A stretch of DNA of 64,000 nt from Gammaproteobacteria bacterium (GTDB lineage Bacteria > Pseudomonadota > Gammaproteobacteria > Eutrophobiales > Eutrophobiaceae). Numbering within the stretch: the first letter of the stretch is position 1; the number at the start of each line of letters is the position of its first letter. A program made the position numbers and the translations under genes. Below, in pieces: positions 2,222-30,978 of this stretch. The notes under the pieces were generated by a model that saw only the letters and a program-made list of their open reading frames with translations, was not told the DNA's origin and searched no databases. The DNA lies in the NCBI GenBank assembly GCA_041689615.1, contig JBDNFW010000033.1, forward strand, positions 258,520-322,519, written 5' to 3'.

Positions 2222-2258
2222 AAAAAATTATTGCGGCAAAAGTTGTGTTAAATGGTAA

Positions 2259-3458
2259 TTACCATTCCCAACCAAGCATCAGGCAATTAAGACCACTACC
2301 TATACCAAGAAAGCTGACGCGGTCACCTTTCTTAAGGAATTGTCTTTGTTCAGCAATTGCTGCAGTTAAAGGAACAGAAACTGTACCAATATTGCCGAGA
2401 TATTTATAAGTACTAAAGTCTTTTTCAGGGGCAATACCCAGTTCTTTTAATATCGTATCGCGATGACCTTGGCCCACCTGATGACATATCACTTTATCGA
2501 CCTGATCTCTGGCCCAGCCCATCCTGCTAAGAAAGGAACCCCATGTTTTAACGCCCAACTTGGCACCATGTTTTAGTACAGCAACTGAATCAGTCGACAT
2601 GAACTCGGATAAAGCTGCTGGTAAAGTTTCCGATGGCATAATACCCGCCAAGGCTGGTGGTAATTTGTTACTCGTCATGACGTCTTTGATTGCTGAAGGT
2701 AGCACTTCCGGATGCATCACCTGATCAATTGCAGCAAGCAATTTGTCAGGAGAAAACATCAATTCACCAAGTGCCACTGGAGATAAAGTGACACCCCAAC
2801 GACAGAGTTTATGATGCTCTGGCGCAGATTGATTAGCGCCTCCAAGTAAGCGATGTGTTTCTTTATTATCAAAAGAACCATCCGTCAGTAATACTGCCGC
2901 CGCACCAGAACCACCGGTTAGTGTTGCTAATGATCTGGAAAACATATCCATCGTTCTGTCATTCAACATACGATCTATCATGATTTCGACGATTTCACGT
3001 GAAGTCTCGCAGGAAACGACCATACCAGCACGAATCTGCTTTAATTCAATCCGGTTAGCAATATCAATAATGCCATTCATGACGCCCAAACAGGCATTTG
3101 AAATATCATAAATATTGGCATCGTTACTAATACCCAATTGAGCCGCAACAGCGCAAGCCGTTGCCGGTTCAAAGTTTTCCCGACAAACACCAGTATAAAT
3201 AAGTGCCTCAACATCTTTTGCTACAACATTAGATTGTTCCAGAGCTTTGCGAGCTGCTGCTGCTGCGCCATCAGAAAGTACATGCCCTTCTTCCCACCAG
3301 CGACGCTCACTAATACCGGTCAAAGCCTGTAATTGACCAGGAGCAATATGTAGCGTGTCATACATAGGCATGAGGCGTTCTTCTAAATCTTCGGAAGTAA
3401 TGACTACAGGGGGTAATTCGTAGCCAATCGACTCCATTTGTACGCGAGTATATTTCAT
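2259..3458 (-). CDS. oleA: FabH-like thiolase-superfamily condensing enzyme, OleA-type (head-to-head Claisen condensation)
   Basis: 399 aa. FabH-like N-terminus (SIGYELPPVVITSEDLEERL), active-site Cys context SNACLGVMNGI, C-terminal GIGSGLNCLMLGWEW. It is the first gene of an oleA-B-C order. Confidence 0.68.
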   Translation of the reverse strand: MKYTRVQMESIGYELPPVVITSEDLEERLMPMYDTLHIAPGQLQALTGISERRWWEEGHVLSDGAAAAARKALEQSNVVAKDVEALIYTGVCRENFEPATACAVAAQLGISNDANIYDISNACLGVMNGIIDIANRIELKQIRAGMVVSCETSREIVEIMIDRMLNDRTMDMFSRSLATLTGGSGAAAVLLTDGSFDNKETHRLLGGANQSAPEHHKLCRWGVTLSPVALGELMFSPDKLLAAIDQVMHPEVLPSAIKDVMTSNKLPPALAGIMPSETLPAALSEFMSTDSVAVLKHGAKLGVKTWGSFLSRMGWARDQVDKVICHQVGQGHRDTILKELGIAPEKDFSTYKYLGNIGTVSVPLTAAIAEQRQFLKKGDRVSFLGIGSGLNCLMLGWEW

Positions 3459-3467: not shown

Positions 3468-6400
3468 CTATGTGATTCGGAGCGCAAAATCTTTCATCTG
3501 ATAGATAATTCTTCCATCAACGGTCAAAAATCCATCTGCTTTGATAGTTTCCTCAGCATCATCAATTTCAGTAATAACTGCCTGTATTGTTACTTTTTCA
3601 TCTACAGGCAAGATTTGCCCCCGATATACCCATTTATGAACCTGATTTAAAGCCATACTCTCAAAAGCAAACTCGCCTATATTCAGCTCATCCTGCCAAC
3701 GTTCCCAGGCAAATACTTTCAATAATTGCATAAATGATTCTAGCCCTAACGATCCTGGCCAAACCGGATCTTCATAAAAATGCGCCTTAAAAAACCATGC
3801 TTCTTCTTTAACTTTAGCAGTTCCTTCGATAAATCCGAGATTATTTGGCCCACCTTCAGGATCATACAAACTAATATCATCAACCATTCGCATCATATCT
3901 GCAGGCATTGGCGCATCGATCGGATACACAAAGGATTTACCTCGAGATCTTTCTAATTCTGTTGGAACATAAAGTTTAGCATCGCGAATACCGATTTGGT
4001 CAGCCAGAGCTTGTTTAGAAAAAAAGCCAAAATTGGTATCGCCTTTATAGACTAATCCCTGATCAGATGTCATTTCATAATCGTAAGTCTGAATAATCAT
4101 ACCACCCGATTGTGAAACGCTGGTCATCTTTACTTTAGTAGTAAGCGTTCCTATTTCTGGTGTTACTTTTATATATTGTGTTGCCGTGCCACCCAGGTTT
4201 CTAAAGGAAATATCGACTTCGCTAGTCAAGGCAGATCCCAAATACGCAGCTAACCAACCACATGGCTGCAATGCCACTTCTAGCAATACTGCAAAAGGCA
4301 TATAGGGCTGATTGTCTTCCGTGAAATACCATTCATCCACAGGCACGTCATATTTAGCTTCGATAATTCCTCCTGCTTTTAAGACCCATTGTTCACAATC
4401 TTTAATAGAGGTTATTCGATCGAGAAATTTATATGGTGGACCAGGTAAACGTGCAATCTTACGTTCGCTATCGAATATTTTATATCTATCACCAAAAGCT
4501 TCTGAAGGTTTACCAATAGCAAAAGCAAGTATCGATTCGTTATCAAATAGAACTTGTTTTGTTTCTGCCGTATTTTTGTGTTCCCAAAGTGCTTCCAGTC
4601 TTTCTCGTTTCAAACCAGTCAATTGAACAGACATATTCTTCATCTGCACAATGGCACGATGATCGCCATACATTAAGGCATCTGCCAATACATAAGGTGT
4701 ACCATCATCACGATAACCAATTTCCTTCAAGGTAATTTCATATTGAACTGCTTTCGTTTCTTCAGTGACCTGACCTCGACATTTCAATTGACTAACTTCA
4801 CCAATGATTGGTTCGTAAACAAATTCATCTTCTTCGCCAATCCAGCCCATGCGTAACAAATAAACACGTAAAGTATGTAAACAACATTCGTACATTAATG
4901 TACCGGGCATCACTCGATCATCAACAAAGTGACATGTTAGAAACCAGTCATCAGGATGAATATCTGCTTCGCCAGTAATCTGACCTATGCCAAAACGACC
5001 CGCATTTGGATCAAGCTTGAGTATGCGATGAACCAACGTCATACGTCCGCTTGGTAAACCAACTGGATTATTTAAATCAATATTATTAAATGACTCACCA
5101 AAACAAGCTGCTAAATTACCTTCTCGTAATACAGCTAATTGTTCATCGCTATAACTCTCAACTTGCATAGCAACAAGTTGTTTCCAATCTTCAGTAAATA
5201 CGCCTTGTTGTTGCTGTTTCTCCATATTGGTTAGCACTATGCCTTTACCCGCATCTAACTCCTGTTGCGTAAAGAAACCGGCACAACCTTGTGTCATCGT
5301 TAATAACGGCTCTCCATTAACGCTCCCTTCAAAGTTAAAACGAAATAGATAGGTATCATCCTGACGAAAGAATTCTTCTATGCGAATATCGTAATGAATA
5401 GTTTCCCCTGCCTTTGGCAAAGGGCCATGAAAAGTAATTTTTGCATCTAATAATCTGTAAACAGCCAAACCTTTCGCAATATGATCAATGCCTAAATAAC
5501 CTGACAAAAATAAATCAGCTTGCCCTGCTTCTACGGCAATACAAGTTGGTATACGTCCAAGATCCAGATACCATGCGTCGTACAAAACATCATGCTCCGT
5601 TATAACGCGACCATTGGTGTTTGGATTGTCTTTCAACGAATCTGCTACACCTTCAACACTTAATATTCGGTCAGCAAGCATTAAAGGTTCATCAGGTAAA
5701 CGCACTCGCGTGGGATACTGATCAATATCGGCAAATTCAGAACCAAGCATCTTACCAATCGAGCCCACCGCAAATTCCATACATTGTTCACGATCAAATA
5801 AACAATCTATTTTATTAGGCATCTCTTGTCTTACAGTTACTTGCGATAAATCATCATCTGTATTATTTAATAAATGCATTTGCATACTGATTGCTTGCGT
5901 GATGGTTTCTGTCATTCCCTGACTAACGCGTAAAAATGTTTCTTGCGCTTCTGAACGTGCTTGTTCAGCTAATTGCATTTGTTGAATCATCGGTTGAAAG
6001 TCACCATTCGCTGTCATAGGTAATGATGTAACACTGGAAGATGTATTAATCGTTTCAACTGAACTCTGTTTTACTTTAGGTTGTATATGCTCAATAACAT
6101 CAGGTTTTGCAGGTGGTGCTGACACTTTGAAAGGCTCACCCCCCGTTTTAACACTGATAAAGTTTTTATATTCTGTTTTTTGTTTTTCCTTATTAATATT
6201 CAACTTTGAAAAATTGACATCCACACCTTCAACATAAAGTCTGGCAAGTATCTGCAATAGGTTATCAACACTGTTTTGCCCTTTAACACAAACTGCTTTT
6301 GCGTAATGTGCTTTATCTTCAAGAATTTGATCAATCATTCTAGTACATGAACCACCCGGCCCCATTTCAACAAAAAAACGTACGCCGTCTTCATAAGCAC

Positions 6401-9400
6401 TATTAATCACCTTGGTATAATCAAACGGCGCTAAAGCTTGGTCTAAAATTGAATCAGCAGCAGAATCCTGTGTTACTTCATAAGCACCACCACGTATACC
6501 ACTATAAAAAGTAACGTCTTCCGGTGGTGTAGTTTCAAAGATATGCAGATCGCGATAAGCCTTTTCAACAGGTCTAGCAACTTCACAATGCACCGTCGTC
6601 ACACCCGACAAAGGATGATACTGAGCATTAAGCTCTTTAATTGCATTATTTAATTCAGTTTTATCGCCACCAATAACGCATTCATTTGGTGTATTAATAA
6701 TCAATAGATAAACATGTTTAAACTTTTCTAAAACAACTTTGACTTTGTCTTCACTGGTATTAATCACACCTAGTGCCCAATCAATAGGCTGTTCTGTTCC
6801 CCATGCCGTTTGTACAGAAGTACAGGGACCAGCAAGTTCTTCTGTAAACAAACTGCTTTGTTGAATTCGTTTCAACATTTCATCACGCGCTGTCCATGTT
6901 CGCGTTGAGAAAAAACCGGCAGTCTCGCCAAGACTATAACCAATCACAGCATCAGGTTTAACAGCAAAACTGGCAACCACATCACTGATAAACGTTCCTA
7001 GCCACACTTGTCCAAAAATAACTTCCTCATGACTGAGCTCTTTGCCATCGTCTTTTTGCCAGAAACGTCCTTGTGCAAACTGAGATGCAAGTGTTTCATT
7101 TTCATTATTTAATTTTTCTAATACGCCAGGAAAAGCAATTCCCAATTCCTGTCCCATACCAAAGAAATGATTGCCTGAACCCGGATAGACAAAAGCAACT
7201 TTGCCATTTTCAGTCAATGGAGAAACTGAAAAATAACAGCGCCCATTATCAATGGAATTATTACTTTTTATTGCAGCAAGCGTTTCTTCGCGGGCTAGAT
7301 TAAATTCTTTCTCATCATTAATTAATAAGACAACGCGATACTTCTCTTTTTTATCTTCGACAACTTCATCAAAAGATAAACTTTGAATCTTACTAATTAA
7401 TGAGTCTTTATCATCAGCAGAAAGAGAAAATAATTTGGCCGTAATATTTTTAACATCAATATTAACCTGTGTTTGCTTTTGGGCTTGCTCTAAAACCACA
7501 CTGATACAATTACCATCAATACTCGTGCTATTAACTAAAGCCCGTCTTGCCCCTTTAACACTATCCTTTAACCAATAGCGGGCCTGCCCACTATTTTCAG
7601 CTGGCAAAATACAATGATGCAAGGCACTTACTGAACTAGCGACACTCATTAATCCATTTGCAGCACCGGAATGTCCGAGAGGAAATGCGTTTGTTACAGC
7701 ATGTTGTAAAGCAGGAATATTAATTACATCATCGCCGGCAGATTGACTAATATAATCAATTGCATCTAAATGACATTGTGCATCTGAACAGGCATTTTGA
7801 ATTGCAGTTATCATCGCAGACTGTTCAGGTTTTATATCGCAACCGCCCGCAGAGGCAACGCCAATACCTTTAATCAAGGCATAAACATTATCACCATCAC
7901 GTATCGCATCTTCATGGCGTTTTAAAACAAAAGCAGTTGCAGCATCGGCAATATTATTAATCTGTTCGACACTTCCTTTAACTGCTCTAAGATCACTAGC
8001 AATATCTACAGCACCAACAATAACTTGATCGAGTTCTTTTAGTTGTAGGGCGCGTACACCGGACTCAAGCGCACGTAAGCCTGAAGTTTCTTCAGAAGAA
8101 ACCGTAAAAGCCGGACCACCGATATGAAAAGCGCGAGCAATACGACTGGCAACAATGCCGCCTAGCGCACCCATTGTGCGATTTGCAGTTAATGCAGGAC
8201 CAAACGCTTGCTTAAGGTTTTCTATCCATTCGAATAAATCATTTCCACTTAAATGAACACCCAGTTTTTTTAGCCATTCACTTGCATATTTTTTTTGCAT
8301 CCAGCGAAAATGAAAATTCGTTGTATTTAAATCAAGTGCAATTCCAATAAACACTCCCGTTCTACATTGTTGTTCTGCATTCAGTTCTGATAACCCTGCA
8401 TCTTCTAAAGCATTTGCTGCAACTTCGAGCATTAATAATTGTTGTGGCAACATTTCTTTTAACTCTGCCGGCGGAATTCGATAGCGTCCTAACGGAACAT
8501 TAACCTCTTCAATTAAATTTCCCTGACATTCTTTACTGTCTGCTCCCCACCAATTATTAGGAGGCATTAACTTCATATCAGAACCAAACAATACTGCTTG
8601 ATCAAATTCCTGTTGATTGCTCCATGGACCTAGACGTGACTCCATGCCGACTATGGCAATATCAGTTTGTGTAGAGTTAGACTGCGTAGAAACAGGAGTC
8701 ACTTTCTCTTTCGGTTTGTACTCTTGTAAAAGTACATGTGCATTAATTCCACCAAAACCAAAACCACTTATCGCTGCGCGTCGAGGCGTATTATCTTCAA
8801 TAGTCCATGACTCTGCTTTATTTAGTACTTTAAATGGGCTGTTAGCTAAATCAATTTTATTCGAAGGAGATTCGTAATTTGCAGTTGGCGGCAATACGCC
8901 ATGTTTCATAGCCAACAAAGTTTTCATTAATGCCGCAGCACCAGCTGCTGTTAATAAATGGCCAACGTTACTTTTGACTGAACCAATAACACATTCACCA
9001 TCAACATTATGGTTTTGCCAAAGATTTTTTAATGACGTGAATTCAACACCATCACCAACCGGTGTACCGGTACCATGACATTCAATATGTTGTACCTGAT
9101 TTGGCTTCCAATCTGCCATTTCATAAGCCGATTGCATGGCACGGCCTTGTCCTTCTGAATCCGGTGACATGATATTGCCTTCAATATCATTCGAAAGACC
9201 TATGCCTTCAATCGTCGCGTAGATATGATCATCTTGCTCTATCGCGTCACTTAAACGCTTAAGCACAAAAATACCTGCTCCCTCACCGACAACAAGACCA
9301 TCAGCTTTACTATCAAACGGCGAACATCGACCTGATTTTGAAATAGCATTAAGTTGGGAAAAACCCATTTGCGTATACAAACAATCCGGCCGAGATAAGC

Positions 9401-10040
9401 CACCTGCCAACATAACGTCAGTACGTCCTGCAATTAGTTCATCAACTGCATATTTCAGGGAATAGAGAGAAGAAGAACAAGCCGCATCTAATGTGTAAGC
9501 GCCTGCTCCTAAGCCTAAAGCTTTTGCCAACAAACCACCCGGCAATCCGGCAACGTATCGATTTAATGGTTCTATCTTTTCTTTTCCATCATCCGAGTCG
9601 ATATTTAACTGTGCTTCAAAAAGGTGTTTAAATATTTCGTCACTAAAGAGAGATGATGACTCTGTGGGAAGCGCAATATTGCCAATGACAATACCAACAC
9701 GTTCTTTATTAATAGCATTAGTCTTCGCATCTGCCCAGGCATCCCGACCTGCATGTAATAAAATTTGATACATCGGATCCAGACGTTGAAGCAAAGAAGC
9801 ATCAACATTAAATCCAGCAGGATTAAATTCAAAATTTTGAATTAAACAAGCGCGACGTGAATTTACTTTATCCGGAGCTAATTCTTCAGAATACAATTCA
9901 TCAGCTTCTAGTCGCCAGCGATCTGCACCAACATTAATGGCAGTGTCCTTTGCATCAAGAATATTTTTCCAGAATTCATCAAGATCACTAGAACCAGGAA
10001 AAACGCCACCAATACCAACAATTGCTATTCGTTCTGCCAT
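3468..10040 (-). CDS. pfaC: PUFA synthase subunit with fused PfaB/PfaC architecture: KS, CLF, acyltransferase (GYSLGE) and two FabA-like DH domains
   Basis: 2190 aa. KS Cys context DAACSSSLYSL. A second KS-like (CLF) domain lacks the active-site Cys. AT motif VIGYSLGETAGF. Two FabA-type hotdog domains (HFVDDRVMPGTLM; AHFYEDPVWPGSLG). Confidence 0.9.
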   Translation of the reverse strand: MAERIAIVGIGGVFPGSSDLDEFWKNILDAKDTAINVGADRWRLEADELYSEELAPDKVNSRRACLIQNFEFNPAGFNVDASLLQRLDPMYQILLHAGRDAWADAKTNAINKERVGIVIGNIALPTESSSLFSDEIFKHLFEAQLNIDSDDGKEKIEPLNRYVAGLPGGLLAKALGLGAGAYTLDAACSSSLYSLKYAVDELIAGRTDVMLAGGLSRPDCLYTQMGFSQLNAISKSGRCSPFDSKADGLVVGEGAGIFVLKRLSDAIEQDDHIYATIEGIGLSNDIEGNIMSPDSEGQGRAMQSAYEMADWKPNQVQHIECHGTGTPVGDGVEFTSLKNLWQNHNVDGECVIGSVKSNVGHLLTAAGAAALMKTLLAMKHGVLPPTANYESPSNKIDLANSPFKVLNKAESWTIEDNTPRRAAISGFGFGGINAHVLLQEYKPKEKVTPVSTQSNSTQTDIAIVGMESRLGPWSNQQEFDQAVLFGSDMKLMPPNNWWGADSKECQGNLIEEVNVPLGRYRIPPAELKEMLPQQLLMLEVAANALEDAGLSELNAEQQCRTGVFIGIALDLNTTNFHFRWMQKKYASEWLKKLGVHLSGNDLFEWIENLKQAFGPALTANRTMGALGGIVASRIARAFHIGGPAFTVSSEETSGLRALESGVRALQLKELDQVIVGAVDIASDLRAVKGSVEQINNIADAATAFVLKRHEDAIRDGDNVYALIKGIGVASAGGCDIKPEQSAMITAIQNACSDAQCHLDAIDYISQSAGDDVINIPALQHAVTNAFPLGHSGAANGLMSVASSVSALHHCILPAENSGQARYWLKDSVKGARRALVNSTSIDGNCISVVLEQAQKQTQVNIDVKNITAKLFSLSADDKDSLISKIQSLSFDEVVEDKKEKYRVVLLINDEKEFNLAREETLAAIKSNNSIDNGRCYFSVSPLTENGKVAFVYPGSGNHFFGMGQELGIAFPGVLEKLNNENETLASQFAQGRFWQKDDGKELSHEEVIFGQVWLGTFISDVVASFAVKPDAVIGYSLGETAGFFSTRTWTARDEMLKRIQQSSLFTEELAGPCTSVQTAWGTEQPIDWALGVINTSEDKVKVVLEKFKHVYLLIINTPNECVIGGDKTELNNAIKELNAQYHPLSGVTTVHCEVARPVEKAYRDLHIFETTPPEDVTFYSGIRGGAYEVTQDSAADSILDQALAPFDYTKVINSAYEDGVRFFVEMGPGGSCTRMIDQILEDKAHYAKAVCVKGQNSVDNLLQILARLYVEGVDVNFSKLNINKEKQKTEYKNFISVKTGGEPFKVSAPPAKPDVIEHIQPKVKQSSVETINTSSSVTSLPMTANGDFQPMIQQMQLAEQARSEAQETFLRVSQGMTETITQAISMQMHLLNNTDDDLSQVTVRQEMPNKIDCLFDREQCMEFAVGSIGKMLGSEFADIDQYPTRVRLPDEPLMLADRILSVEGVADSLKDNPNTNGRVITEHDVLYDAWYLDLGRIPTCIAVEAGQADLFLSGYLGIDHIAKGLAVYRLLDAKITFHGPLPKAGETIHYDIRIEEFFRQDDTYLFRFNFEGSVNGEPLLTMTQGCAGFFTQQELDAGKGIVLTNMEKQQQQGVFTEDWKQLVAMQVESYSDEQLAVLREGNLAACFGESFNNIDLNNPVGLPSGRMTLVHRILKLDPNAGRFGIGQITGEADIHPDDWFLTCHFVDDRVMPGTLMYECCLHTLRVYLLRMGWIGEEDEFVYEPIIGEVSQLKCRGQVTEETKAVQYEITLKEIGYRDDGTPYVLADALMYGDHRAIVQMKNMSVQLTGLKRERLEALWEHKNTAETKQVLFDNESILAFAIGKPSEAFGDRYKIFDSERKIARLPGPPYKFLDRITSIKDCEQWVLKAGGIIEAKYDVPVDEWYFTEDNQPYMPFAVLLEVALQPCGWLAAYLGSALTSEVDISFRNLGGTATQYIKVTPEIGTLTTKVKMTSVSQSGGMIIQTYDYEMTSDQGLVYKGDTNFGFFSKQALADQIGIRDAKLYVPTELERSRGKSFVYPIDAPMPADMMRMVDDISLYDPEGGPNNLGFIEGTAKVKEEAWFFKAHFYEDPVWPGSLGLESFMQLLKVFAWERWQDELNIGEFAFESMALNQVHKWVYRGQILPVDEKVTIQAVITEIDDAEETIKADGFLTVDGRIIYQMKDFALRIT

Positions 10041-10078
10041 AACTTTATTACTCGTTCAGATTTATAAGATCTAAACTT

Positions 10079-13000
10079 CTATATTGCTTCAAGACTTAAT
10101 TGATTTTTCTCAAATGCCATTTGCAAAGAACTGTCACGTACGCATTCATAACAATCGATCAATGCTATCAACTGCCCTTTACTATCGATGAACTCTATTG
10201 ATGCATTAGCCCTATGATCAGTTTTCTCATTAACTACAGTAATAATTCTTGCTCCATCTTTTGGATAGTTGCGTTGATATTGACGGTAACTGGAAATGGC
10301 CGTCGGCAAAGAAGCAATACCTCTCTCTTCAAAACTCCAGAGGATCATCATCTGGAAGGCAGAATCAAGAATTAAAGGATCAGTTAACCAACTCGAACGT
10401 ATCGGTTGGTTCATCCACGTTGATGGTTGCGGTGCTGCGTTTACATTGGCAGCAATACCTTTATCACTACAGTGAGTTACTTCTTTAATACCTTGTAGAT
10501 CTTGCCCGTGAAACAACTGTCCATTTTTATAATATTCACCTTGAGTTTTATTGTATTTCTTATTTACCACTTTTAATTGCGGTAACACATTCGTTTCATA
10601 ACTATCAGCCAAAATCATTATTGCACTGGCATGCAATAAGTCATCAGAACGTAATTCAACTGGCACTAAAGAAACATCACCTTTATGAATAATGTTGCCC
10701 GCAAGAATTCTCAAACGAATAGTTTCGTCAGCTTTTAAAGTAACACCTTTTAATACACGAAAATCGTCAAAGCCCTGAAACTGCATGCCCGGATTTAAAT
10801 GTAATGCACCATGTGCAAACCATTCGATAATAATAGCCACAGGCAAAACAGCCTGACCATTCATTACATGTGATTTTAGAAACGCATGTGTATTAACTGA
10901 AAGCTCACGTTCAAAAGCTAAAGACAGCTCGCTGTTTTCGACTGACAATGCTGAATAATTCTTTAAAGGTATTTTTTGTAAAATATTATCTGATTCACCG
11001 AGTACAACTGTCTCCACAGGTCCATCAGATTCTATCTCATTTATTAAATACTCAGCACCGGCTCTGAGTCCAATAACACCAACGCCTTCTTCTGCAAATA
11101 ATTTTTTTAATGCAGGAGTCACCATGCCACCATCCCAGGGACCCCAGTTAACTGATAAGACTTTGCAATCCTTTCTATTGTGATTTTCTTGTACTGCTTG
11201 CTTATTTAAGATTTCATTTGCCGCAGCGTAGTCAACCTGGCCTTTACGCCCCAATCTAGCTGTCGTCGATGAAAATAAAACTATCAGTTTTAATGTGTCA
11301 TTATTAGTTGCTGTCAATAAATTATCTAAACCATCTACCTTGGTAGAATAAACAGTATTGAATTGTTCTTCTGTTTTATCTTCTATCAAACGATCCGCAA
11401 GCACACCAGCAGCATGTATTATTCCAGTAACATTACCTAACTCAGCACGTGCTAAATCAATTGTATTTGTAACCGCATCAACATCAGTAACATCAACTGA
11501 GCTGTACTGAACTTTTGTACCCGTCTGTTCGATGCGTTCCAGCGTTGCTTTAATTTCACGATTAGCCAAAATGGATTGATATTGTTTTTCAAGTTCAGCA
11601 GGACGCAAATTTTTTTCTGCTTCATCCATAATCGCTTTCTTGATACTTGCCGCATCGGACAAAGATGATAACCATTCTGGTTCGTTCTTCGGTTCTGGAC
11701 TGCGGCCTAATAGTAACAAACTACATTGATATGTTTCGGCTAACTTAACCGCTACTTCAGCAGTCACGCCGCGCGCACCTCCGGAAATAACAATAAGATC
11801 GTCTTGATTTAAAGCTGTTCGTTCTTGTTTACTATCAGAGAGCGCCTCTTCTTCTAATAATAACTGACTTGCTTTTTCATCTGACAAACCGACTTCTAAA
11901 GGCCCATCGAGAAAGAGTTCATTTTGAATTAAATCAACTGATGCTGAAGCTTGATTAATATCAATCGATTTGCAATTAACATCAGACCATTCTTTATCTG
12001 CCGTTTTAATAATGCCATACAGCCCAGCCTGAACAGGATTAGTTTCAATACTGCCATTAAATCCAAAACTTCCGCCCAATGATGTTATTGAAGCAAGTAT
12101 GCCTTTTGATTTTTTTAGACTATCAGCACAACGCTGCACCAATGAAAATGTATCAAGCAAATATTGTTTATCCGCTTCTACTTTGGCGCAAATAATTAAA
12201 GCACCTAATTCATCAATTGCTGCTTGACCATTATTAATAAGCTTTGTTTTATATCCTTTTTCTTTTAATGTCGTTGCTAACTGATCAGCCAGTTCACCAC
12301 CCTCTTTCGTAATCCAGATTTCTTTATCTTTATTAAAGTCTATCTGTTGGCGAGACCCTGTTTCATCAAGTTCAGCAAGGTGAACAACACTGCGGACAAT
12401 TCTTGATTCTTTTTTGCTTTCAACGACTGCTTCTTTGACTGCTGCAACTGTTACTACTTTATTACCAGTAACAACTTGCTCGTTCATATAATCAATGATT
12501 TGTTGCAAGGTCTGTAAAGCAGCTAAATCATCCGCTGATACAGTCGGCAAGTCTGGCATTTTGTCTTGTAATGCCGATAAGATTTCCACACGTTTAATTG
12601 AGTCGATACCAAGATCACTATCCAGATTCATTTCCAGATTTAACATATCCACTGGATAACCGGTTTTATCTGCCACAACCTCTAATAATACTTCTGATAA
12701 ATTCGAATCACTTACTGGGAGTGACTGTTCTTGTTGATCAGAAGGTAATGCTTCAGAAATATTAAAAACATCAACAATCGATTGCAATGTTTGTAAGGTG
12801 GCCATGTCATCAGGACTAACTGAAGGTAATTCAGGTATGCGTTCTTGTATTGCAGATAAAATTTCAACGCGCTTAATCGAATCAATACCGAGATCGCTAT
12901 CCAGATTCATTTCCAGATTTAACATATCTACCGGATAACCGGTTTTGTCTGCCACAACTTCAAGTAGAGTATCTGCAAAACCGTTAATAACACTTGTCGT

Positions 13001-16000
13001 ATTAACAGCAACTACAACAGGTGCAGATTCCGTTTGTTCAGTGATAAATAATTCTGTTATAGATCGTAAGGTTTGCAATTGCCCCAATTCATCTGGACTG
13101 ATTGTTGGTAATTCTGGCATTGCTTCTTGCAATGCCGATAAAATCTCAACACGTTTGATCGAATCGATACCGAGGTCGCTATCAAGATTCATATCCAGTT
13201 CCAACATATCTATTGGATAACCGGTTTTTTCTGAAACGATTTCTAATAAAACTTTAGCGAAGTTGTCATCAACTTGAGTCGCTGCTGCCACAGTTTTTGT
13301 TGTAGTACTTGCGGCAATCCCCACCGGTCTACCGGCAGCAATAAATTCAACAATATGTTGCAAGAACTGGAAGGTGCCTAATTCTTCCGGATTAACAGCT
13401 TGCGACCAGGGTAATTGTTCTTGCAAGGCAGAAAGAATTTCAACACGCTTAATTGAATCAATTCCCAAATCAGTATCCAGACTCATATCGAGACTTAACA
13501 TTTCTAATGGATAACCCGTTTTTTCTGAGACGACTTTTAATAACAAATTATTTATATCAATATCCGTTGTTTCAATTGAAACTGGAGCAGACTGAATGGT
13601 TTCTTCTCTCTCTTTAACAAGCGGCGCTTTGATTAGATTATTTTTTTTTGGCTCAGATTTTATTGATTCTGTTTTTTGTGCCGGCGCACTGACTTGTGTT
13701 AGCTGTTGTACAGCTAAAGGTTGTCCTGACATTAATCGAAATTGCTGATCTAACAATGATTGAATTGATTTTTGTGCTGTCTCCTGTCCTTCAAGATACT
13801 GCTGATGTAAACGCGCGGTTTGTTCCTGCATTTTTTGTAAGGCAATAATGCTTTCCTGCGTAGCTTGTAATAAACCGCTGCTTGCAACAGTGCTAACTGA
13901 TGTTGTTACTTGTTCAGTTTCTTTAGAAGAAATATTTTTTACATCATTCGTCATGGCATTAACATTAATTACTGGTTTAGATTTTGGTTTACTTGCTGGA
14001 CGCGGCTTACGCGGCATTGTGTAATTCGCACCACTTATTGCTATGGTCATTACAGGTTTTACATCTTTAGCCGGTCTTTCCATGGTTGAACATGATGCAT
14101 CCCATTTATTAAGTTCAACTTGTTGTCCATTAACTGCTAACGTTGCTAACACAAGAGCCAAATCATATTGACCTTGCTTCTTGCCGACTGAGGCATCAAT
14201 AGCAATAGTAGTAATAGGTTTGTCTGCAAGAATTGAATTAATTAATCCGGTTAATATTTTTCCCGGGCCTACTTCAACAAAAGTCGTAATACCTTCTGCA
14301 TATAGTTTTTCAACCTGTTCGACAAAACGAACAGGCGATGCTAATTGATATGCTAATAGTTGTTTCGCTGCGTCAACATCTTTTGGATAAGTGTCAGTCG
14401 TTGTATTGGATAAAACCTGATAATTGTTTTTTTCGAACTTAAATGGCGCCAGTGCTTCAGCAAATGGTTTCGCAGCATCAGCAACAAATGAACTGTGAAA
14501 TGCTGCTGCTACAGGTAATTTAATTGCACGTATTTTTTCAGCTTTAGCAACTTTTGCAAAAGCATCCACTTGATCTGTTGAACCTGATAACACAACCTGT
14601 GTTGGTGAGTTATGATTTGCAATAACCAGTTCTAACTTATTTTTTTTCAATAAGGACTCTACTTGTTCATAAGGCGCAACGACTGCCAGCATAGAACCTC
14701 TATCACCTTCACCTGTAGCCATTAACTCACCACGAATTCGTGATAAGCGATGCAATGTTTCAGCGTTATACATGCCTGCTGCCGATAGTGCAGTTAATTC
14801 ACCATAACTATGACCAATCGCAGCTTTTGGCTTAACAGAAAAATAATTTAATACTTCAAGCGCACCAAGACTTACAGCACCAATGGCAGGCTGTGCATTT
14901 TGCGTTTGTCGTAAAGTTTCTTCCTGATGTTTTTGATCAGCTTTGGAAAAAACAGGAATAGGATAAAGCACATCACCCAAGCTTTCTTTTCCTAGGCTTT
15001 CTTTACCCGTCGCTTCTATGAAAATATTGTTTGCTTGTTCTAATACATTTAAAAACTGAGGAAACTGACAGGCTAGATCACGACACATGCCAGTGTATTG
15101 CGAACCTTGTCCCGGGAAAACAAAAGCAATGTTGTCGTTGTTTCTTTCAGAACTGTATGCAACACCATCAGGTCTTTGCCATGCTGATTCAGATGAAGAT
15201 GTTAATTGCTTTTTAATATCAGCAATAAACTTTTGTCTATCTTCATTTGATTTTTCAATGACTATCGTTAAACGATGAGCTGCATCGCTTTTAAAACTTT
15301 GACATGAATCATAAGCAAAAAACCTGAGTTCATTCCATGAATCAAGAATGGTAGACTCTGGTAACTGTTTTATTAATTCTTCTTTTGAATCTACGCTTAA
15401 AGCAATAATTAAAACAGTACCATCCCATTCAATTTCGGTTTTCGTTTCTTCAGCTTCTTCAAGTACACAATGAAAATTGCTGCCGCCAAAACCAAACGAA
15501 CTTAATCCCGCACGACGCGGAGTAGATTGTGTTTTTAACCATGGACGTTTCACGGTATTGAGATAAACAGGTGAAGTACCGGGATTAATAATTTCTAATG
15601 GTTCATCTACTTTAATACTCGGTGGTAAAACTTTATATTTTAAAGCCATGGCCGTTTTAATCAGTCCGGCAACACCGGCTGCAGCTTTGGTATGTCCGAT
15701 CATCGATTTTACTGATCCAATCGCACACCATGTTTCACCATCATTATCTTGTCCATAAACACCGGACAACGCAGTTGCTTCAACAGCATCACCAACTGAT
15801 GTACCTGTACCATGCGCTTCAACTAACTCAATGCTTCTTGGAGTAACATCCGCTTCACGATAGGCATTCCATAATGCTTTGGTTTGACCTGTAGCACTCG
15901 GTGCATAAATGGCATTACCTCTACCATCAGACGAAGAACCGATACCACGTAATACCGCATAGATTTTATCGTTGTCACGTTTAGCATCGTCAAGTCGTTT

Positions 16001-16843
16001 TAATACAACGGCACCAATGCCTTCACCTAAAATTGTTCCATCGCCTTCTTTAGCAAACGGACGACTATTACCTGTTGGCGATAAGGCCGGTGTTTTACTA
16101 AAACACATATACATAAAAATATCGTTAAAGGTATCGACACCACCGGTAATAGCCATATCAACTCTGCCGGCACTCAGTTCCATTGAAGCAAGGTGTAATG
16201 CACTTAATGAACTCGCACAAGCTGCATCAACAACACAATTGGTGCCACCAAAATCAAATCTATTAGCAATACGACCGGCTGCAACATTACCTAATAAACC
16301 AGGGAATGAATTCTCTTGCCAGGGCACATAACCATCAGCAATGCGTTGTACGACATCTTCTGCTGTTTCAGGATCTATTCCAGCATCGGCTAATGCTTTT
16401 CGCCATATTGGATGACCGAGTCGAGCACCTAACGGAATCACTAATTCTAATGTACCGGTCACACCCATAATGACGCTGGTGCGATCACGATCAAATTCAC
16501 GACCATCACCTGCATCTTTAGCAGTGGAATAATTCGCATCTAATAATGCCTGACGCGTAACCACCATACCTAATAATTGTGTGGTATCCGTCGCTTCAAT
16601 ATTGTTCGGACTTAGTCCGTATAACAGTGGGTTAAATTCTTGCGCATTAATAAAACCACCACGTTTAGCATAAGTCATATCTGGTGCAGTTTTATCCGCA
16701 TCAAAATAATCTTCCGGTTTCCAATGCGTATCAGGTATATCAGTTATCGCATCAACGCCTTCACGAATATTGGTCCAATACTCTTGAGGATTATCTGCTT
16801 TAGGAAATAGACAACCAATACCAACAATAGCAAGAGGCTTCAT
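10079..16843 (-). CDS. pfaA: PUFA synthase PfaA: KS-MAT-4xACP-KR-DH
   Basis: 2254 aa. KS motif VVDAACASSLSALH. MAT motif GHSYGE. Four ACP repeats (LGIDSIKRVEILSAL). KR Rossmann motif ISGGARGVTAEVA. PKS-type DH domain at the C-terminus. Confidence 0.92.
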   Translation of the reverse strand: MKPLAIVGIGCLFPKADNPQEYWTNIREGVDAITDIPDTHWKPEDYFDADKTAPDMTYAKRGGFINAQEFNPLLYGLSPNNIEATDTTQLLGMVVTRQALLDANYSTAKDAGDGREFDRDRTSVIMGVTGTLELVIPLGARLGHPIWRKALADAGIDPETAEDVVQRIADGYVPWQENSFPGLLGNVAAGRIANRFDFGGTNCVVDAACASSLSALHLASMELSAGRVDMAITGGVDTFNDIFMYMCFSKTPALSPTGNSRPFAKEGDGTILGEGIGAVVLKRLDDAKRDNDKIYAVLRGIGSSSDGRGNAIYAPSATGQTKALWNAYREADVTPRSIELVEAHGTGTSVGDAVEATALSGVYGQDNDGETWCAIGSVKSMIGHTKAAAGVAGLIKTAMALKYKVLPPSIKVDEPLEIINPGTSPVYLNTVKRPWLKTQSTPRRAGLSSFGFGGSNFHCVLEEAEETKTEIEWDGTVLIIALSVDSKEELIKQLPESTILDSWNELRFFAYDSCQSFKSDAAHRLTIVIEKSNEDRQKFIADIKKQLTSSSESAWQRPDGVAYSSERNNDNIAFVFPGQGSQYTGMCRDLACQFPQFLNVLEQANNIFIEATGKESLGKESLGDVLYPIPVFSKADQKHQEETLRQTQNAQPAIGAVSLGALEVLNYFSVKPKAAIGHSYGELTALSAAGMYNAETLHRLSRIRGELMATGEGDRGSMLAVVAPYEQVESLLKKNKLELVIANHNSPTQVVLSGSTDQVDAFAKVAKAEKIRAIKLPVAAAFHSSFVADAAKPFAEALAPFKFEKNNYQVLSNTTTDTYPKDVDAAKQLLAYQLASPVRFVEQVEKLYAEGITTFVEVGPGKILTGLINSILADKPITTIAIDASVGKKQGQYDLALVLATLAVNGQQVELNKWDASCSTMERPAKDVKPVMTIAISGANYTMPRKPRPASKPKSKPVINVNAMTNDVKNISSKETEQVTTSVSTVASSGLLQATQESIIALQKMQEQTARLHQQYLEGQETAQKSIQSLLDQQFRLMSGQPLAVQQLTQVSAPAQKTESIKSEPKKNNLIKAPLVKEREETIQSAPVSIETTDIDINNLLLKVVSEKTGYPLEMLSLDMSLDTDLGIDSIKRVEILSALQEQLPWSQAVNPEELGTFQFLQHIVEFIAAGRPVGIAASTTTKTVAAATQVDDNFAKVLLEIVSEKTGYPIDMLELDMNLDSDLGIDSIKRVEILSALQEAMPELPTISPDELGQLQTLRSITELFITEQTESAPVVVAVNTTSVINGFADTLLEVVADKTGYPVDMLNLEMNLDSDLGIDSIKRVEILSAIQERIPELPSVSPDDMATLQTLQSIVDVFNISEALPSDQQEQSLPVSDSNLSEVLLEVVADKTGYPVDMLNLEMNLDSDLGIDSIKRVEILSALQDKMPDLPTVSADDLAALQTLQQIIDYMNEQVVTGNKVVTVAAVKEAVVESKKESRIVRSVVHLAELDETGSRQQIDFNKDKEIWITKEGGELADQLATTLKEKGYKTKLINNGQAAIDELGALIICAKVEADKQYLLDTFSLVQRCADSLKKSKGILASITSLGGSFGFNGSIETNPVQAGLYGIIKTADKEWSDVNCKSIDINQASASVDLIQNELFLDGPLEVGLSDEKASQLLLEEEALSDSKQERTALNQDDLIVISGGARGVTAEVAVKLAETYQCSLLLLGRSPEPKNEPEWLSSLSDAASIKKAIMDEAEKNLRPAELEKQYQSILANREIKATLERIEQTGTKVQYSSVDVTDVDAVTNTIDLARAELGNVTGIIHAAGVLADRLIEDKTEEQFNTVYSTKVDGLDNLLTATNNDTLKLIVLFSSTTARLGRKGQVDYAAANEILNKQAVQENHNRKDCKVLSVNWGPWDGGMVTPALKKLFAEEGVGVIGLRAGAEYLINEIESDGPVETVVLGESDNILQKIPLKNYSALSVENSELSLAFERELSVNTHAFLKSHVMNGQAVLPVAIIIEWFAHGALHLNPGMQFQGFDDFRVLKGVTLKADETIRLRILAGNIIHKGDVSLVPVELRSDDLLHASAIMILADSYETNVLPQLKVVNKKYNKTQGEYYKNGQLFHGQDLQGIKEVTHCSDKGIAANVNAAPQPSTWMNQPIRSSWLTDPLILDSAFQMMILWSFEERGIASLPTAISSYRQYQRNYPKDGARIITVVNEKTDHRANASIEFIDSKGQLIALIDCYECVRDSSLQMAFEKNQLSLEAI
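12560..13560 (-). repeat. four tandem ~280-bp intragenic repeats encoding the ACP domains of pfaA
   Basis: Near-identical DNA blocks recur at about 12600, 12880, 13160 and 13445 (gaatcgataccgag.tcgctatc.agattcat...ggataaccggtttt). Confidence 0.85.
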
Positions 16844-16854
16844 CTGAGTACCTC

Positions 16855-17090
16855 CAAAAATGCACTTTTCCCGCGATCGCCGCGTCGGCTCCGTACTTGA
16901 ATACTCACAGAGTACGATGTTCTCATGTATGTTTTATACATTGCGATTCTCGGCAATTGCTCCCGGCATTGCTCTACCTCCTGCATCCATGCAGTCGTCC
17001 GCGTATGCATCCTTGCACTTATGTACAGGGATGTACTGTATACCGGTTTTGCAGGAGCAAAAACCGGACACGAAAAAATCACTATTTCTT
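16855..17090. repeat. intercistronic repeat element copy A (pfaD/pfaA spacer), flanked by 11-bp inverted repeats CTGAGTACCTC (16844-16854) and GAGGTACTCAG (17091-17101)
   Basis: Shares the core aaaaatgcactttt...atactcacagagtacgatgt.ctcatgtat with the copies at 49991-50120 and 32480-32592. The flanking inverted repeat contains the pfaA SD (GGAGG). Confidence 0.6.
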
Positions 17091-17128
17091 GAGGTACTCA
17101 GTTTTTTAATGTGTTTCTTTGACATAAC

Positions 17129-18817
17129 TTACTCAGATAAATAACTCTTAATTGTTTCTTGTTGCATAGGATGGAATTGCGTTAATGCAACAGGAAGTTC
17201 AACACCTTGCTTAAGCAAACCATTAATTCGATATAAAACAGCAGCACCAAATAAAATATTCATTGCCACAGTCACTGCATTTCTATTATTTGTTTCAGAT
17301 AAAAAAGTTTCGCGCGTCCATTCATTAAACGCTCCCATTGCTGGGCCACACCAAACTTGATAATCAACTTGGCGATCTTCAACGCCGGCATTTGCCCAAC
17401 GTGAAGACAGTCCTAAATACCATCGAAAAATTAATGCCATTTTATGTTTTGCATCTTTATGCGCTTTTTCAACTTGACGCGGATCTCGTTCAGTAAAAAA
17501 TTCTTCTGTCTTTTGCCATACTTCAGCTAATGACATTTTAAAAATTGTTTTTTCCAGATTCGCTTTTTCTGTTTCAGAAATTTCTTCTATCGATCCGTAT
17601 TTTTTATAAATGTCATAAAGCTTATTACCGCGCATCGCAAACATGGTGCCGCGTTTTAATACTTGTAACTTCACACCCATTTCAAACATATCTACTGCTG
17701 GTGCCATAGTGACGTCAGCTTGTTCTGCATTGGCTAACATTTCTCTAACAATGTCAGAGGAACCTGATTCTTTGCAGGCTTGATTAACAGTACCGGTAAC
17801 AATGTAAGCCGCACCCATAGCAAACGCACCTAATGCTGAAGCAGGTATTGCAATCCCTCCGGCAGCACCAACACGCAGTGGTTTTTCATAATTATGTTTT
17901 GCCTGATATTGATCGCGTAGTGATAACATCGTTGGTAATAATGTAATAGCAGGTCGATTGTCTGTATGACCACCCGAGTCAGCTTCGACCGTTAAGTCTT
18001 GCGCCATCGGAATATGTTTGGCCAAGTCTGCTTCTTCTTTTGTTATCGAACCCTGCTCTAATAATTTTTCCAATAATTTTTCAGGTGGAGGACTAAACCA
18101 TTTGCTTGCAAGCTCTACCCTCGATGCCTTAGCTATGATCCTATTAGGAACAATAATATTACCCTGCTTATCTTTATGAATTCCTTTCACTCGATAACGT
18201 ACAACTGGCAAAGTCAGTTTCATATAAGCAGATGTTTCAACCAGTGTAACTCCGTATTTTAAATAGAGATCAACAACCGCATCTTCATGTCCTATTTCAT
18301 TCGGGCTATAAATAAGGTTAAAGCAAAATGTTTTATCGCCTAAGGAAGTTTGCAGACGTTTAATTGCTGTTTCTATTTCAGTTAAAGACAAACCCGCTGC
18401 ACCGAATGATGCCAACATGCCTTCGCTTGCTAACGCTTCAACCAATTCAACAGAAGCAATGCCATTTGCCATTGAGCCTGCCATATAAGGATAATCAATT
18501 TGATAATCCTGACAAAAATTCTGATCACCTAAGGCTTTAATGGTTTGTGCCGAAGCAATGCCACGTAAACGATACTGTTTGTCGTCTTTTTGATAGTCAT
18601 CACCCTGACTATCAAACTGAATAGATCCACCCAAGGCAATTGCAGATCTGGATTTATTTTCAACTATACAAAATGGCACATCTAACTGATAAAGCTGTTC
18701 AGGCAATTTTTCCAAATCAGATAGACTAGCGCGACTATCCGATTGCCAAACATTTTGAGAATGACGCTTTGTTTCCGTCGAACGAGACGGACTAATAATT
18801 TCTGGTATGGAACTCAC
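17129..18817 (-). CDS. pfaD: PUFA synthase enoyl reductase PfaD (nitronate monooxygenase-like fold)
   Basis: 562 aa. YPYMAGSMANGIASVELVEALASEGMLASFGAAGL region is typical of PfaD-type ER. It lies upstream of and co-directional with pfaA. Confidence 0.85.
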   Translation of the reverse strand: MSSIPEIISPSRSTETKRHSQNVWQSDSRASLSDLEKLPEQLYQLDVPFCIVENKSRSAIALGGSIQFDSQGDDYQKDDKQYRLRGIASAQTIKALGDQNFCQDYQIDYPYMAGSMANGIASVELVEALASEGMLASFGAAGLSLTEIETAIKRLQTSLGDKTFCFNLIYSPNEIGHEDAVVDLYLKYGVTLVETSAYMKLTLPVVRYRVKGIHKDKQGNIIVPNRIIAKASRVELASKWFSPPPEKLLEKLLEQGSITKEEADLAKHIPMAQDLTVEADSGGHTDNRPAITLLPTMLSLRDQYQAKHNYEKPLRVGAAGGIAIPASALGAFAMGAAYIVTGTVNQACKESGSSDIVREMLANAEQADVTMAPAVDMFEMGVKLQVLKRGTMFAMRGNKLYDIYKKYGSIEEISETEKANLEKTIFKMSLAEVWQKTEEFFTERDPRQVEKAHKDAKHKMALIFRWYLGLSSRWANAGVEDRQVDYQVWCGPAMGAFNEWTRETFLSETNNRNAVTVAMNILFGAAVLYRINGLLKQGVELPVALTQFHPMQQETIKSYLSE

Positions 18818-19107
18818 TGTATTTAATCAATAAACTCTTCTGAATATGTAATGGCGGAAAGGACAATGCTTATTTATTTACATCCATCTGTTCTGATTGT
18901 AATGTGCGCGTCCTGAACAGCCCTAATTATTGAATAATATCATTTTTTTCGGGCAAAACCTTGTAGCATCGATGCTCTAAACGATTAAGATTTAGTGACT
19001 ACTTGTTCAAAATGAATGCTGAATTTAGTTATTTTGATGTGATTAACTAAAAAATAAAACCACAAAACATACTAAACCATTGTTTTTATAAGAGATATTT
19101 ATTTTTC

Positions 19108-20175
19108 ATGAAATCCAGAGAAGAATTTCAAACCAAACTTGATGACCTTGCCTATCAAAACAAGATTTTGCAGCATGTCTCTCGAACTTTTGCCTTAACT
19201 ATTCCGCAATTGCCTGAACCATTAAGCACGGTCGTAGCAAATGCCTACCTTTTGTGTCGTATTGCCGACACGATCGAAGATGATAAGAGCATGTCGGCTG
19301 AACAAAAAAAGGAATCTGCCGAGCTTTTTATCAAAGTTGTTAAGGAAAATGCTGAAGCTGAAGCATTTGCCGAAACCCTGTTTCCATTATTGTCACCGAC
19401 AGCAACTGAAGCTGAACATGATCTGATTTCCAATACGTCTCCTGTAATTAGAATTACTCACAGTTTCAATCAACGCCAACGCGCTGCTCTAGAACGTTGT
19501 GTCAAAATCATGGCCGATGGCATGGTAATGTATCAGGATGCTGAAACCCTTGATGGCGTTTCCGATCAGAGGGATATGGATCAATACTGTTATTACGTTG
19601 CGGGCGTTGTTGGCGAAATGTTGACTGAACTTTTCTGCGATCATTCGCCTGAAATCGATGCACATCGTGATGAGATGATGAAATTGGGAGTGTCATTTGG
19701 TCAGGGTTTGCAAATGACCAATATATTGAAAGATATCTGGGAAGATCATGAGCGCGGAGCTTGCTGGTTACCTCGCGATGTATTCGAAAAATACGGTATC
19801 GATATTCGTCATAAAGTACCAGGTAAAATGGGTGAAGGTTTTAATGAAGCTTTAATAGAATTGCTCGGTGTTGCCCATGCACATGTCTATAACGCTTTGC
19901 GCTATACTTTAATGATTCCCGAAAAAGAAAAAGGATTACGAAAATTCTGTTTGTGGGCCTTGGGTATGGCGGTATTAACTCTAGAAAAGATCAGACGACA
20001 GCCTGATTTCACGGAAGGTCAGCAAGTCAAAATCAGTCGTCGCAGTGTTAAAGTCACCCTCTTTTTGACAAGTCTTTTCGTTGGCCAAAATAGAATATTA
20101 AGTTATCTTTTCCAATTCAGTGGACGTCGTTTGCCTATGGCAAATATTCATGCGAAACTCTGCCAAAATCAGTGA
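19108..20175 (+). CDS. sqs: squalene synthase, single-enzyme eukaryote-like type
   Basis: 355 aa. SRTFALTIPQL...YLLCRIADTIEDD and YCYYVAGVVGEMLT match squalene/phytoene synthase motifs. It is the first gene of the hopanoid operon. Confidence 0.8.
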   Translation: MKSREEFQTKLDDLAYQNKILQHVSRTFALTIPQLPEPLSTVVANAYLLCRIADTIEDDKSMSAEQKKESAELFIKVVKENAEAEAFAETLFPLLSPTATEAEHDLISNTSPVIRITHSFNQRQRAALERCVKIMADGMVMYQDAETLDGVSDQRDMDQYCYYVAGVVGEMLTELFCDHSPEIDAHRDEMMKLGVSFGQGLQMTNILKDIWEDHERGACWLPRDVFEKYGIDIRHKVPGKMGEGFNEALIELLGVAHAHVYNALRYTLMIPEKEKGLRKFCLWALGMAVLTLEKIRRQPDFTEGQQVKISRRSVKVTLFLTSLFVGQNRILSYLFQFSGRRLPMANIHAKLCQNQ

Positions 20176-20274
20176 TATACATGACTATAACGCTGAAACA
20201 ACAAGGAGAATAAGGCGGCTTTCGACAGGGCAGTATGGTCTATCTGACTTCTTGCCCCACCTGTATTAAATAAC

Positions 20275-22931: not shown

Positions 22932-23001
22932 CCTGGCCGCTTGTTATAAAATCTAAGCTGGTTTATAAGGAAACATAATCCCCCACTAGAAAGATATTAA
23001 T

Positions 23002-23748: not shown

Positions 23749-23763
23749 TCGATATAACTAAAA

Positions 23764-30976: not shown

Positions 30977-30978
30977 GA

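Follow-up and report, generated by a model that had tools for sequence, protein, structure and literature searches.

The locus considered here raises the question of what is made by a Pfa-type polyunsaturated fatty acid (PUFA) synthase whose genes are not arranged as in the Shewanella-type clusters. It lies in a stretch of 64,000 nucleotides (the window) from a Gammaproteobacteria bacterium of the family Eutrophobiaceae (GenBank assembly GCA_041689615.1, contig JBDNFW010000033.1, positions 258,520 to 322,519 of the forward strand). A preliminary description of positions 3468-18817 had recognized the three synthase genes, regarded their layout as non-canonical with a likeness to the myxobacterial pfa1-2-3 clusters, and expected a product other than eicosapentaenoic acid (EPA) or docosahexaenoic acid (DHA). 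The synthase subunits are built as described, but the cluster is not bounded at 3468: the olefin synthesis genes oleA, oleB and oleC continue on the same strand, with oleA starting 9 bp downstream. The region is probably the 5' two-thirds of one co-directional operon, pfaD-pfaA-pfaBC-oleA-oleB-oleC, whose last genes, oleD and pfaE, would lie beyond the window. As judged from its sequence, the cluster is most likely a Type I ('Geobacter-type') pfa-ole operon and thus a new gammaproteobacterial member of an arrangement already catalogued by Shulse and Allen (2011), who sorted pfa-like clusters into Types A-T (PMC3098273).

The synthase is encoded by three genes, with the following domains (positions in nucleotides of the window):

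17129-18817, minus strand: pfaD-type enoyl reductase (ER), 562 aa, first gene of the predicted operon (TIGR02814 and Pfam)
10079-16843, minus strand: pfaA-type subunit, 2254 aa (TIGR02813, Pfam domains and motifs)
15608-16840, minus strand: ketosynthase (KS) of PfaA
14219-15124, minus strand: malonyl acyltransferase (MAT) of PfaA
about 12479-13561, minus strand: four acyl carrier proteins (ACPs) of PfaA
11132-11791, minus strand: ketoreductase (KR) of PfaA
10139-10924, minus strand: PS-DH dehydratase (DH) of PfaA
3468-10040, minus strand: fused pfaB/C subunit (KS-CLF-AT-DH-DH), 2190 aa (Pfam, NCBIfam and motifs)
8691-10034, minus strand: KS of PfaBC
about 7341-8663, minus strand: chain length factor (CLF) of PfaBC
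6285-7193, minus strand: acyltransferase (AT) of PfaBC
about 4617-5813, minus strand: DH1 of PfaBC (pseudo-DH plus FabA-like)
about 3495-4553, minus strand: DH2 of PfaBC

All three open reading frames (ORFs) are intact, lie on the minus strand and end where the preliminary description had placed them. In profile searches, the ER matches TIGR02814 (pfaD_fam) with 638 bits (cutoff 449) over residues 92-530, together with the Pfam families NMO and FabD_helical_ins, while the PfaA-type subunit reaches 1689 bits for TIGR02813 (omega_3_PfaA) against a cutoff of 1010. The Pfam order in the latter is KS, Acyl_transf_1 (the MAT), four PP-binding domains, KR and PS-DH. Its KS catalytic residues are in place (Cys209, His344 and His384), the MAT carries the motif GHSYGE at 677, the four ACPs each carry a LGIDSIKRVEIL (LGIDS) motif with Ser1130, Ser1228, Ser1322 and Ser1415, and the DH shows an HxxxGxxxxP motif at 1992 (His1992). 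With E-values that are effectively zero, these domain assignments are not due to chance.

The fused PfaBC subunit begins with a KS in which the active-site residues Cys188, His322 and His361 are present, followed by a second KS-like domain with Glu650 at the position where the catalytic cysteine would be, and this replacement identifies the domain as a CLF. The best match among solved structures is 6riw ('ORF10', E 6e-119, residues 3-685), which we take to be a PfaC KS-CLF didomain. The AT that follows has the motif GYSLG with Ser1036 and is of the PfaB type, scoring 103 bits for TIGR02816 (pfaB_fam) compared to 63 bits for FabD, and the protein closes with two FabA-type DH/isomerase domains marked by His1704 and His2087. 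In the 77 aligned homologues these catalytic residues are invariant or nearly so; the AT nucleophile is a serine in 75 of them and a cysteine in the other two, at loci L015 (GYCLG) and L018 (GHCLG).

Two absences define the architecture further. PfaBC ends 8 residues past its last FabA domain, has no match to PF01553 and no HxxxxD motif across its final 400 residues, and none of the 77 aligned homologues carries a C-terminal extension, so that an acylglycerophosphate acyltransferase (AGPAT) domain is lacking. Furthermore, tblastn searches of the 64-kb window with the AT and MAT domains retrieved only the ATs of PfaA and PfaBC, and therefore no stand-alone pfaB is present. The domain order ER, KS-MAT-4ACP-KR-DH and KS-CLF-AT-DH-DH, as well as the lack of a separate pfaB and of an AGPAT, had all been stated beforehand and are borne out by Pfam and NCBIfam domains, motifs and these searches.

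Directly after pfaBC follow the genes that were passed over when the interval was ended at 3468, and these are the real evidence for a product other than a PUFA:

2259-3458, minus strand: oleA, head-to-head condensing thiolase, 399 aa, beginning 9 nt past pfaBC
1337-2221, minus strand: oleB-like alpha/beta hydrolase (Abhydrolase_1), predicted beta-lactone decarboxylase, 294 aa
1-1325, minus strand: oleC, predicted olefin beta-lactone synthetase, an AMP-dependent ligase, of which the first 441 codons are present before the gene exits the window start

Among solved structures, OleA matches the 3ROW/3S21/4KU2/5VXD series with an E-value of 8e-58, compared to 2e-18 for the best FabH. We take this series to be the OleA of Xanthomonas campestris, the molecule name in the PDB being only '3-oxoacyl-[ACP] synthase III'. 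Residues Cys123, Glu97-Pro98, His326 and Asn356 align with Cys143, Glu117-Pro, His285 and Asn315 of the 3ROW/4KU2-series chain, and the protein scores 484 bits for NF006720. In addition, some of its homologues bear the JGI name acyl-CoA:acyl-CoA alkyltransferase. OleA is set apart from other thiolases by the Glu-Pro pair (PMC7064751).

The partial OleC covers positions 1-443 of the 552-position profile NF045785 (olefin beta-lactone synthetase, Shewanella type) with 537 bits, compared to 184 bits for a general model of long-chain fatty-acid-CoA ligases; the full-length cutoff is 850, and the window protein is without its last ~110 residues. It is 81% identical to its homologue in the related locus L002, which precedes oleD and a phosphopantetheinyl transferase (PPTase) gene. 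At L002 the OleC reaches 650 bits and the OleD 470 bits (2-alkyl-3-oxoalkanoate reductase model), the best in the library but under the equivalog cutoffs of 850 and 580, respectively; like the partial OleC of the window, both score best against Shewanella-type NCBIfam models. The hydrolase between oleA and oleC has haloalkane dehalogenases as its best family and structure matches (E 2e-34), all under the equivalog cutoffs, and no OleB-specific model or solved structure is among the matches, so that the assignment stands at the level of family and gene context. With an HDWG nucleophile motif at 107 and a position between oleA and oleC that recurs in most related ole-bearing loci, the protein fits what is predicted for an OleB. 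No PPTase was found among the scanned window ORFs of at least 120 aa, three such ORFs having been left unscanned, and no thioesterase gene was seen in the cluster.

The linkage of synthase and ole genes is widely shared. A degenerate-pattern scan over one genome per species yielded 594 confirmed relatives, of which the best 80 loci were analysed. Their alignments span essentially all 2190 residues of PfaBC, from which a common architecture across the 80 loci follows. Downstream genes could be counted in the 63 loci with enough flanking DNA and upstream genes in 46. OleA is encoded immediately after pfaBC in 53 of the 63 and somewhere in the locus in 58, and the order ER-PfaA-PfaBC on one strand holds in 40 of the 46; L002 is one of the six exceptions, as genes inserted between pfaA and pfaBC push the ER past the 10-kb flank. 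The gene after oleC in L002 (80% identity), L026 and L081 encodes a reductase of the 3-beta-HSD family (OleD), and the next one a 240-aa PPTase of the HetI/Sfp type. The Pfa ACPs require this PPTase, and its gene comes after that of OleD, so that the pfa operon encloses the ole genes. The hosts include Gammaproteobacteria, Geobacteraceae/Desulfuromonadales, Planctomycetota, Elusimicrobiota, Gemmatimonadota, Acidobacteriota, Verrucomicrobiota, Hydrogenedentota, Nitrospirota and others, about ten phyla overall.

The three loci with oleD and the PPTase gene also differ in detail. The insertion in L002 (6580-9395) consists of genes for a GDP-mannose dehydratase, an epimerase and an APS kinase, and L081, known from a separate look-up, has three small ORFs (1459-3211) between pfaA and pfaBC. 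In L026 a DinB-like polymerase gene lies between oleA and oleB (18302-19408), and pfaBC is broken into two ORFs (1486 and 719 aa; 10001-16613), by a frameshift or through faulty assembly.

In a neighbour-joining tree of PfaBC from 77 loci, built without reference sequences of Types A-H or K-T, the window sequence falls with L007, L003 and L002 (labelled Thiotrichaceae) into a clade of gammaproteobacterial metagenome-assembled genomes (MAGs) at 53-81% identity. This clade adjoins Phycisphaerae, Pirellulales and other planctomycetes, while the Geobacteraceae/Desulfuromonadales clades are related but distinct (44-50% identity). The OleA tree recovers the same gammaproteobacterial and planctomycete subclade, marked by an insertion in OleA that is described below, and this agreement points to co-inheritance of pfa and ole genes as a unit.

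These features match one of the known systems closely. Type I clusters, described from Geobacter, Desulfuromonas, Pelobacter and Gemmata, have a pfaBC fusion and were proposed to supply olefin synthesis, since Geobacter bemidjiensis makes hentriacontanonaene (PMC3098273). In the latter organism pfaD, A, B and C, oleA, B, C and D, and pfaE occur in tandem, and C31:9 is produced (Yoshida et al. 2016; PMC4882568). As in the G. bemidjiensis cluster, the ER comes first, PfaA has the order KS-MAT-ACPn-KR-DH, the fused KS-CLF-AT-DH2 subunit is without an AGPAT, and oleA, oleB and oleC lie directly downstream, with oleD and finally the PPTase gene following in the relatives. Furthermore, the window shares its synteny with loci of Geobacteraceae, Desulfuromonadales and Singulisphaera, whose PfaBC is 44-50% identical in alignments that cover all 2190 residues. 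The layout is thus non-canonical relative to the Shewanella-type clusters, but it had already been described as Type I. Unlike the Type I clusters known from Deltaproteobacteria and one planctomycete, the present one belongs to an uncultured gammaproteobacterial lineage of ~38% GC; it also differs from the Geobacter type in that its PfaBC falls into a separate subclade with planctomycetes, its OleA has a 52-aa insertion and a hopanoid cluster adjoins it.

Other types resemble the cluster in part. Shewanella and Photobacterium (Types A and B) likewise possess both enzyme systems, presumably with the same chemistry from 16:4n-3 to C31:9 (PMC6463001). However, these types have a stand-alone PfaB, an ER gene in last position, a pfaT thioesterase and separate pfa and ole operons (adjacent in P. 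profundum), and make mainly EPA or DHA, whereas here the AT is fused, the ER comes first and the ole genes lie inside the operon. Canonical Type A/B membership is accordingly rejected, the only two ATs being those within PfaA and PfaBC and the ER coming first. The myxobacterial Type L clusters of Aetherobacter and Sorangium share the leading ER, the three-gene synthase, the lack of a separate pfaB and an AT inside the PfaC-like protein, but their pfa1-pfa2-pfa3 set is defined by a C-terminal AGPAT on Pfa3 and makes linoleic acid, arachidonic acid (ARA), EPA and DHA (PMC4882568). The likeness in layout noted earlier is therefore fair, yet Type I is the closest system, and Type L membership is rejected because PfaBC stops after DH2 without an AGPAT, with ole genes coming next. 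The clusters of Type D (Psychroflexus torquis, Aureispira marina) have the same fused pfaBC [KS-CLF-AT-DH2], with the KR region split from pfaA into a gene of its own, and make ARA and EPA (PMC4882568). The window differs from them in a single PfaA polypeptide with KR and DH, the leading ER and the ole genes downstream; no ole genes are described for the Type D cluster in the reviewed sources. As the same fusion yields ARA and EPA in Type D, it is the ole linkage and not the fusion by itself that predicts the product. The preliminary description thus pointed in the right direction with its expectation of a product other than EPA or DHA and its suggestion of hydrocarbon profiling, but an AT within the PfaC-like protein does not on its own establish such a product.

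On the observed gene content and order, intact reading frames, catalytic residues and conserved linkage, the locus likely encodes a Type I Pfa synthase that feeds the head-to-head olefin pathway of the Ole enzymes, making a very long polyunsaturated hydrocarbon. In such a pathway, the MAT would load malonyl units on the four ACPs of PfaA, and the chain would be elongated by the PfaA KS together with the KS-CLF of PfaBC. The KR, the PS-DH, the FabA-type DH/isomerases and the trans-acting ER would act iteratively to yield a methylene-interrupted polyunsaturated acyl chain, which by analogy with Shewanella may be 16:4n-3. OleA would then join two such chains, probably taken directly from the Pfa ACPs, by a non-decarboxylative Claisen condensation, after which OleD would reduce the beta-keto acid, OleC would close the beta-lactone and OleB would decarboxylate it to the cis-olefin. 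The predicted end product is a membrane-resident hentriacontanonaene, C31:9, or a close analogue. By homology and synteny, we infer the hand-off route, the chain length of the product and its number of double bonds from the Shewanella system, where S. oneidensis no longer makes C31:9 once pfa is lost (PMC6463001). OleA apparently draws 16:4n-3 straight from the Pfa ACPs there, as the ketone forms even without an acyl-CoA synthetase (PMC6463001, PMC4882568).

Several points weigh against this assignment. Five of the 63 loci (L034, L039, L045, L072 and L077) have no ole gene nearby, and four of them (L034, L045, L072 and L077) encode an ER-PfaA-PfaBC synthase with 9-10 kb of downstream sequence in which no ole gene occurs, so that this type of synthase is not always ole-linked. 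The presence of oleD and the PPTase gene, both beyond the window, is deduced from relatives. The Type I assignment rests on architecture, synteny and 44-50% identity and not on a KS tree of all Types A-T. Characterised OleAs do not have the 52-aa insertion, which could alter substrate choice. Finally, the gammaproteobacterial clade consists of uncultured MAGs throughout, the product is a prediction from the genes, and the sequence does not reveal its chain length.

Among the competing explanations, the one that survives best is that the cluster is primarily a membrane PUFA synthase, making EPA, ARA, a DHA-like or a shorter acid for phospholipids, with the Ole enzymes skimming off a minor intermediate. 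The full PUFA-synthase domain set, including two FabA-type DH/isomerases and a PfaB-type AT, would allow for this, as would the ARA and EPA made by the same KS-CLF-AT-DH2 fusion in Type D (PMC4882568), and in Shewanella and Photobacterium a single Pfa synthase feeds both PUFA and hydrocarbon (PMC6463001). However, within the operon the ole genes come after pfaBC, at a distance of 9 nt, and before the PPTase gene, an arrangement conserved in about ten phyla. PfaBC carries no AGPAT domain, no plsC-like gene occurs among the scanned window ORFs of at least 120 aa, and C31:9 is the only product reported in the reviewed literature for G. bemidjiensis, which has been cultured and has this gene order (PMC4882568). 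We consider a predominant PUFA function unlikely.

That the two halves work independently is very improbable. OleABCD would then condense chains made by the fatty acid synthase of type II (FAS II), as in Xanthomonas or Micrococcus, while the Pfa synthase made a separate lipid, the two being held together by shared regulation or co-transfer. Xanthomonas OleA enzymes do use FAS-derived acyl-CoAs (PMC6463001), and both the five related synthase loci without ole genes and the unrelated genes that interrupt the cluster in L002, L026 and L081 would agree with such independence. In bacteria with a PUFA synthase, however, OleA takes only the Pfa-derived chain despite the presence of FAS II (PMC6463001). 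Furthermore, independence is opposed by linkage in 53 of 63 loci across phyla, by the position of the PPTase gene after oleD, and by the insertion-marked gammaproteobacterial and planctomycete subclade that the OleA and PfaBC trees share. An end product other than an olefin (for instance a polyunsaturated ketone, a beta-lactone or a product linked to a lipid) is extremely improbable: although OleA alone gives ketones in heterologous hosts (a 31:8 ketone; PMC6463001), oleACD clusters without oleB make beta-lactones (PMC7064751) and the OleA insertion is uncharacterised, oleB is intact here with its HDWG motif, is conserved in most ole-bearing related loci, and belongs to a complete oleABCD set in the relatives.

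The insertion in OleA comprises 52 aa at residues ~226-279, SPVALGELMFSPDKLLAAIDQVMHPEVLPSAIKDVMTSNKLPPALAGIMPSETLPAAL, with three LPxAL..M repeats. It is absent from the 3ROW-series OleA chain and from OleAs of the Geobacter and Singulisphaera type; it is found in all 23 members of the gammaproteobacterial and planctomycete subclade and in none of the 33 other OleAs. Conservation within the insertion is 0.73, compared to 0.88 across the remaining protein. The 120 best public OleA matches nearly all have the 399-aa form, a few being slightly shorter or partial, and all their source names are uncultured MAGs. An AlphaFold model built from a shallow alignment of 18 sequences had a mean predicted local distance difference test score of 40, too poor to place the insertion, and was not used. 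It is conceivable, if rather doubtful, that the gammaproteobacterial and planctomycete pfa-ole systems form a distinct variant in which the apparently helical insertion could serve as a dock for direct acyl uptake from the Pfa ACPs. If this were true, a thioesterase or CoA ligase step would be unneeded, and the product might differ from C31:9.

With regard to operon structure, the same-strand gaps from pfaA to pfaBC, oleA, oleB and oleC measure 38, 9, 37 and 11 nt, and the pfa and ole genes are presumably co-transcribed. No terminator signal stood out over the shuffled background inside the operon; the promoter and terminator scan of the window was uninformative, with 43 sites resembling promoters (58.5 expected) and 12 resembling terminators (13.7 expected), and no Rfam RNA family was found anywhere in the window. 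A longer gap separates the first two genes:

16844-17128, minus strand: ER-pfaA spacer of 285 nt with a dispersed palindromic repeat inside (folding)

This spacer folds with a minimum free energy of -96.3 kcal/mol (z = -5.67), and its core is 92% identical to the corresponding spacer of L026. Partial copies occur elsewhere in the window (49986-50084), between oleA and oleB in L017 and downstream of the cluster in L006. A role as riboregulator was rejected on account of these copies at unrelated intergenic sites of the window and its relatives. The spacer is probably an element resembling repetitive extragenic palindromes (REP) or miniature inverted-repeat transposable elements (MITE), and as such it would stand outside the mechanism.

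Upstream of the ER gene, and divergent from it with 290 nt between, lies a hopanoid cluster (19108-27371, plus strand):

19108-20175, plus strand: squalene synthase-like protein
20275-22221, plus strand: squalene-hopene cyclase (789 bits)
22218-22931, plus strand: HpnG-like phosphorylase
23002-23748, plus strand: PhyH-family Fe(II)/2-oxoglutarate dioxygenase, between hpnG and hpnN
23764-26388, plus strand: HpnN transporter (842 bits)
26232-27371, plus strand: HpnA epimerase (504 bits)

The dioxygenase scores 177 bits for a methylphosphonate hydroxylase model, far under the cutoff of 500, and may be a hopanoid-modifying enzyme. The HpnA-like epimerase was considered as a displaced oleD and ruled out, its score for HpnA being above the cutoff and that for the OleD model only 125 bits. 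The squalene synthase gene adjoins the ER gene in L005 and L026 as well. The pfa-ole genes and the divergent hopanoid cluster could belong to a single membrane-lipid island and be co-regulated from a control region that they share.

Elsewhere the window holds ordinary chromosomal content, including psd, the antiporter subunits and nuoG-N. Three successive genes of the Proton_antipo_M family (Mrp/Nuo-like antiporter subunits) with a strong skew between A and T lie at 27623-32463 on the minus strand, and a standard nuoG-nuoN operon segment occupies 53171-63955 on the same strand. Between them, a chemotaxis cluster (36732-48493, minus strand) encodes CheA, CheW, CheR, CheD, CheB, a ParA-like ATPase and a STAS protein, together with a globin-PAS-HAMP-MCP receptor of 1060 aa (42154-45336) and, as a protein of its own, a 147-aa globin (45381-45824). 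The globins in this cluster suggest oxygen-sensing taxis.

Taken together, the locus corrects the earlier reading, in that it most likely represents a hydrocarbon (polyolefin) operon and not an odd PUFA synthase. The current understanding is not overturned; minor new features of this operon are the insertion in OleA, the neighbouring hopanoid genes and the wide range of hosts. The Geobacter-type pfa-ole operon, known in 2011 from Deltaproteobacteria and one planctomycete, is thus widespread, with full-length copies of conserved synteny in at least ten phyla, among them a large uncultured gammaproteobacterial clade. This bears on the sources of C31:9-type hydrocarbons in the environment, on how lipid pathways are transferred horizontally, and on the choice of compact nine-gene operons for making olefins in heterologous hosts.

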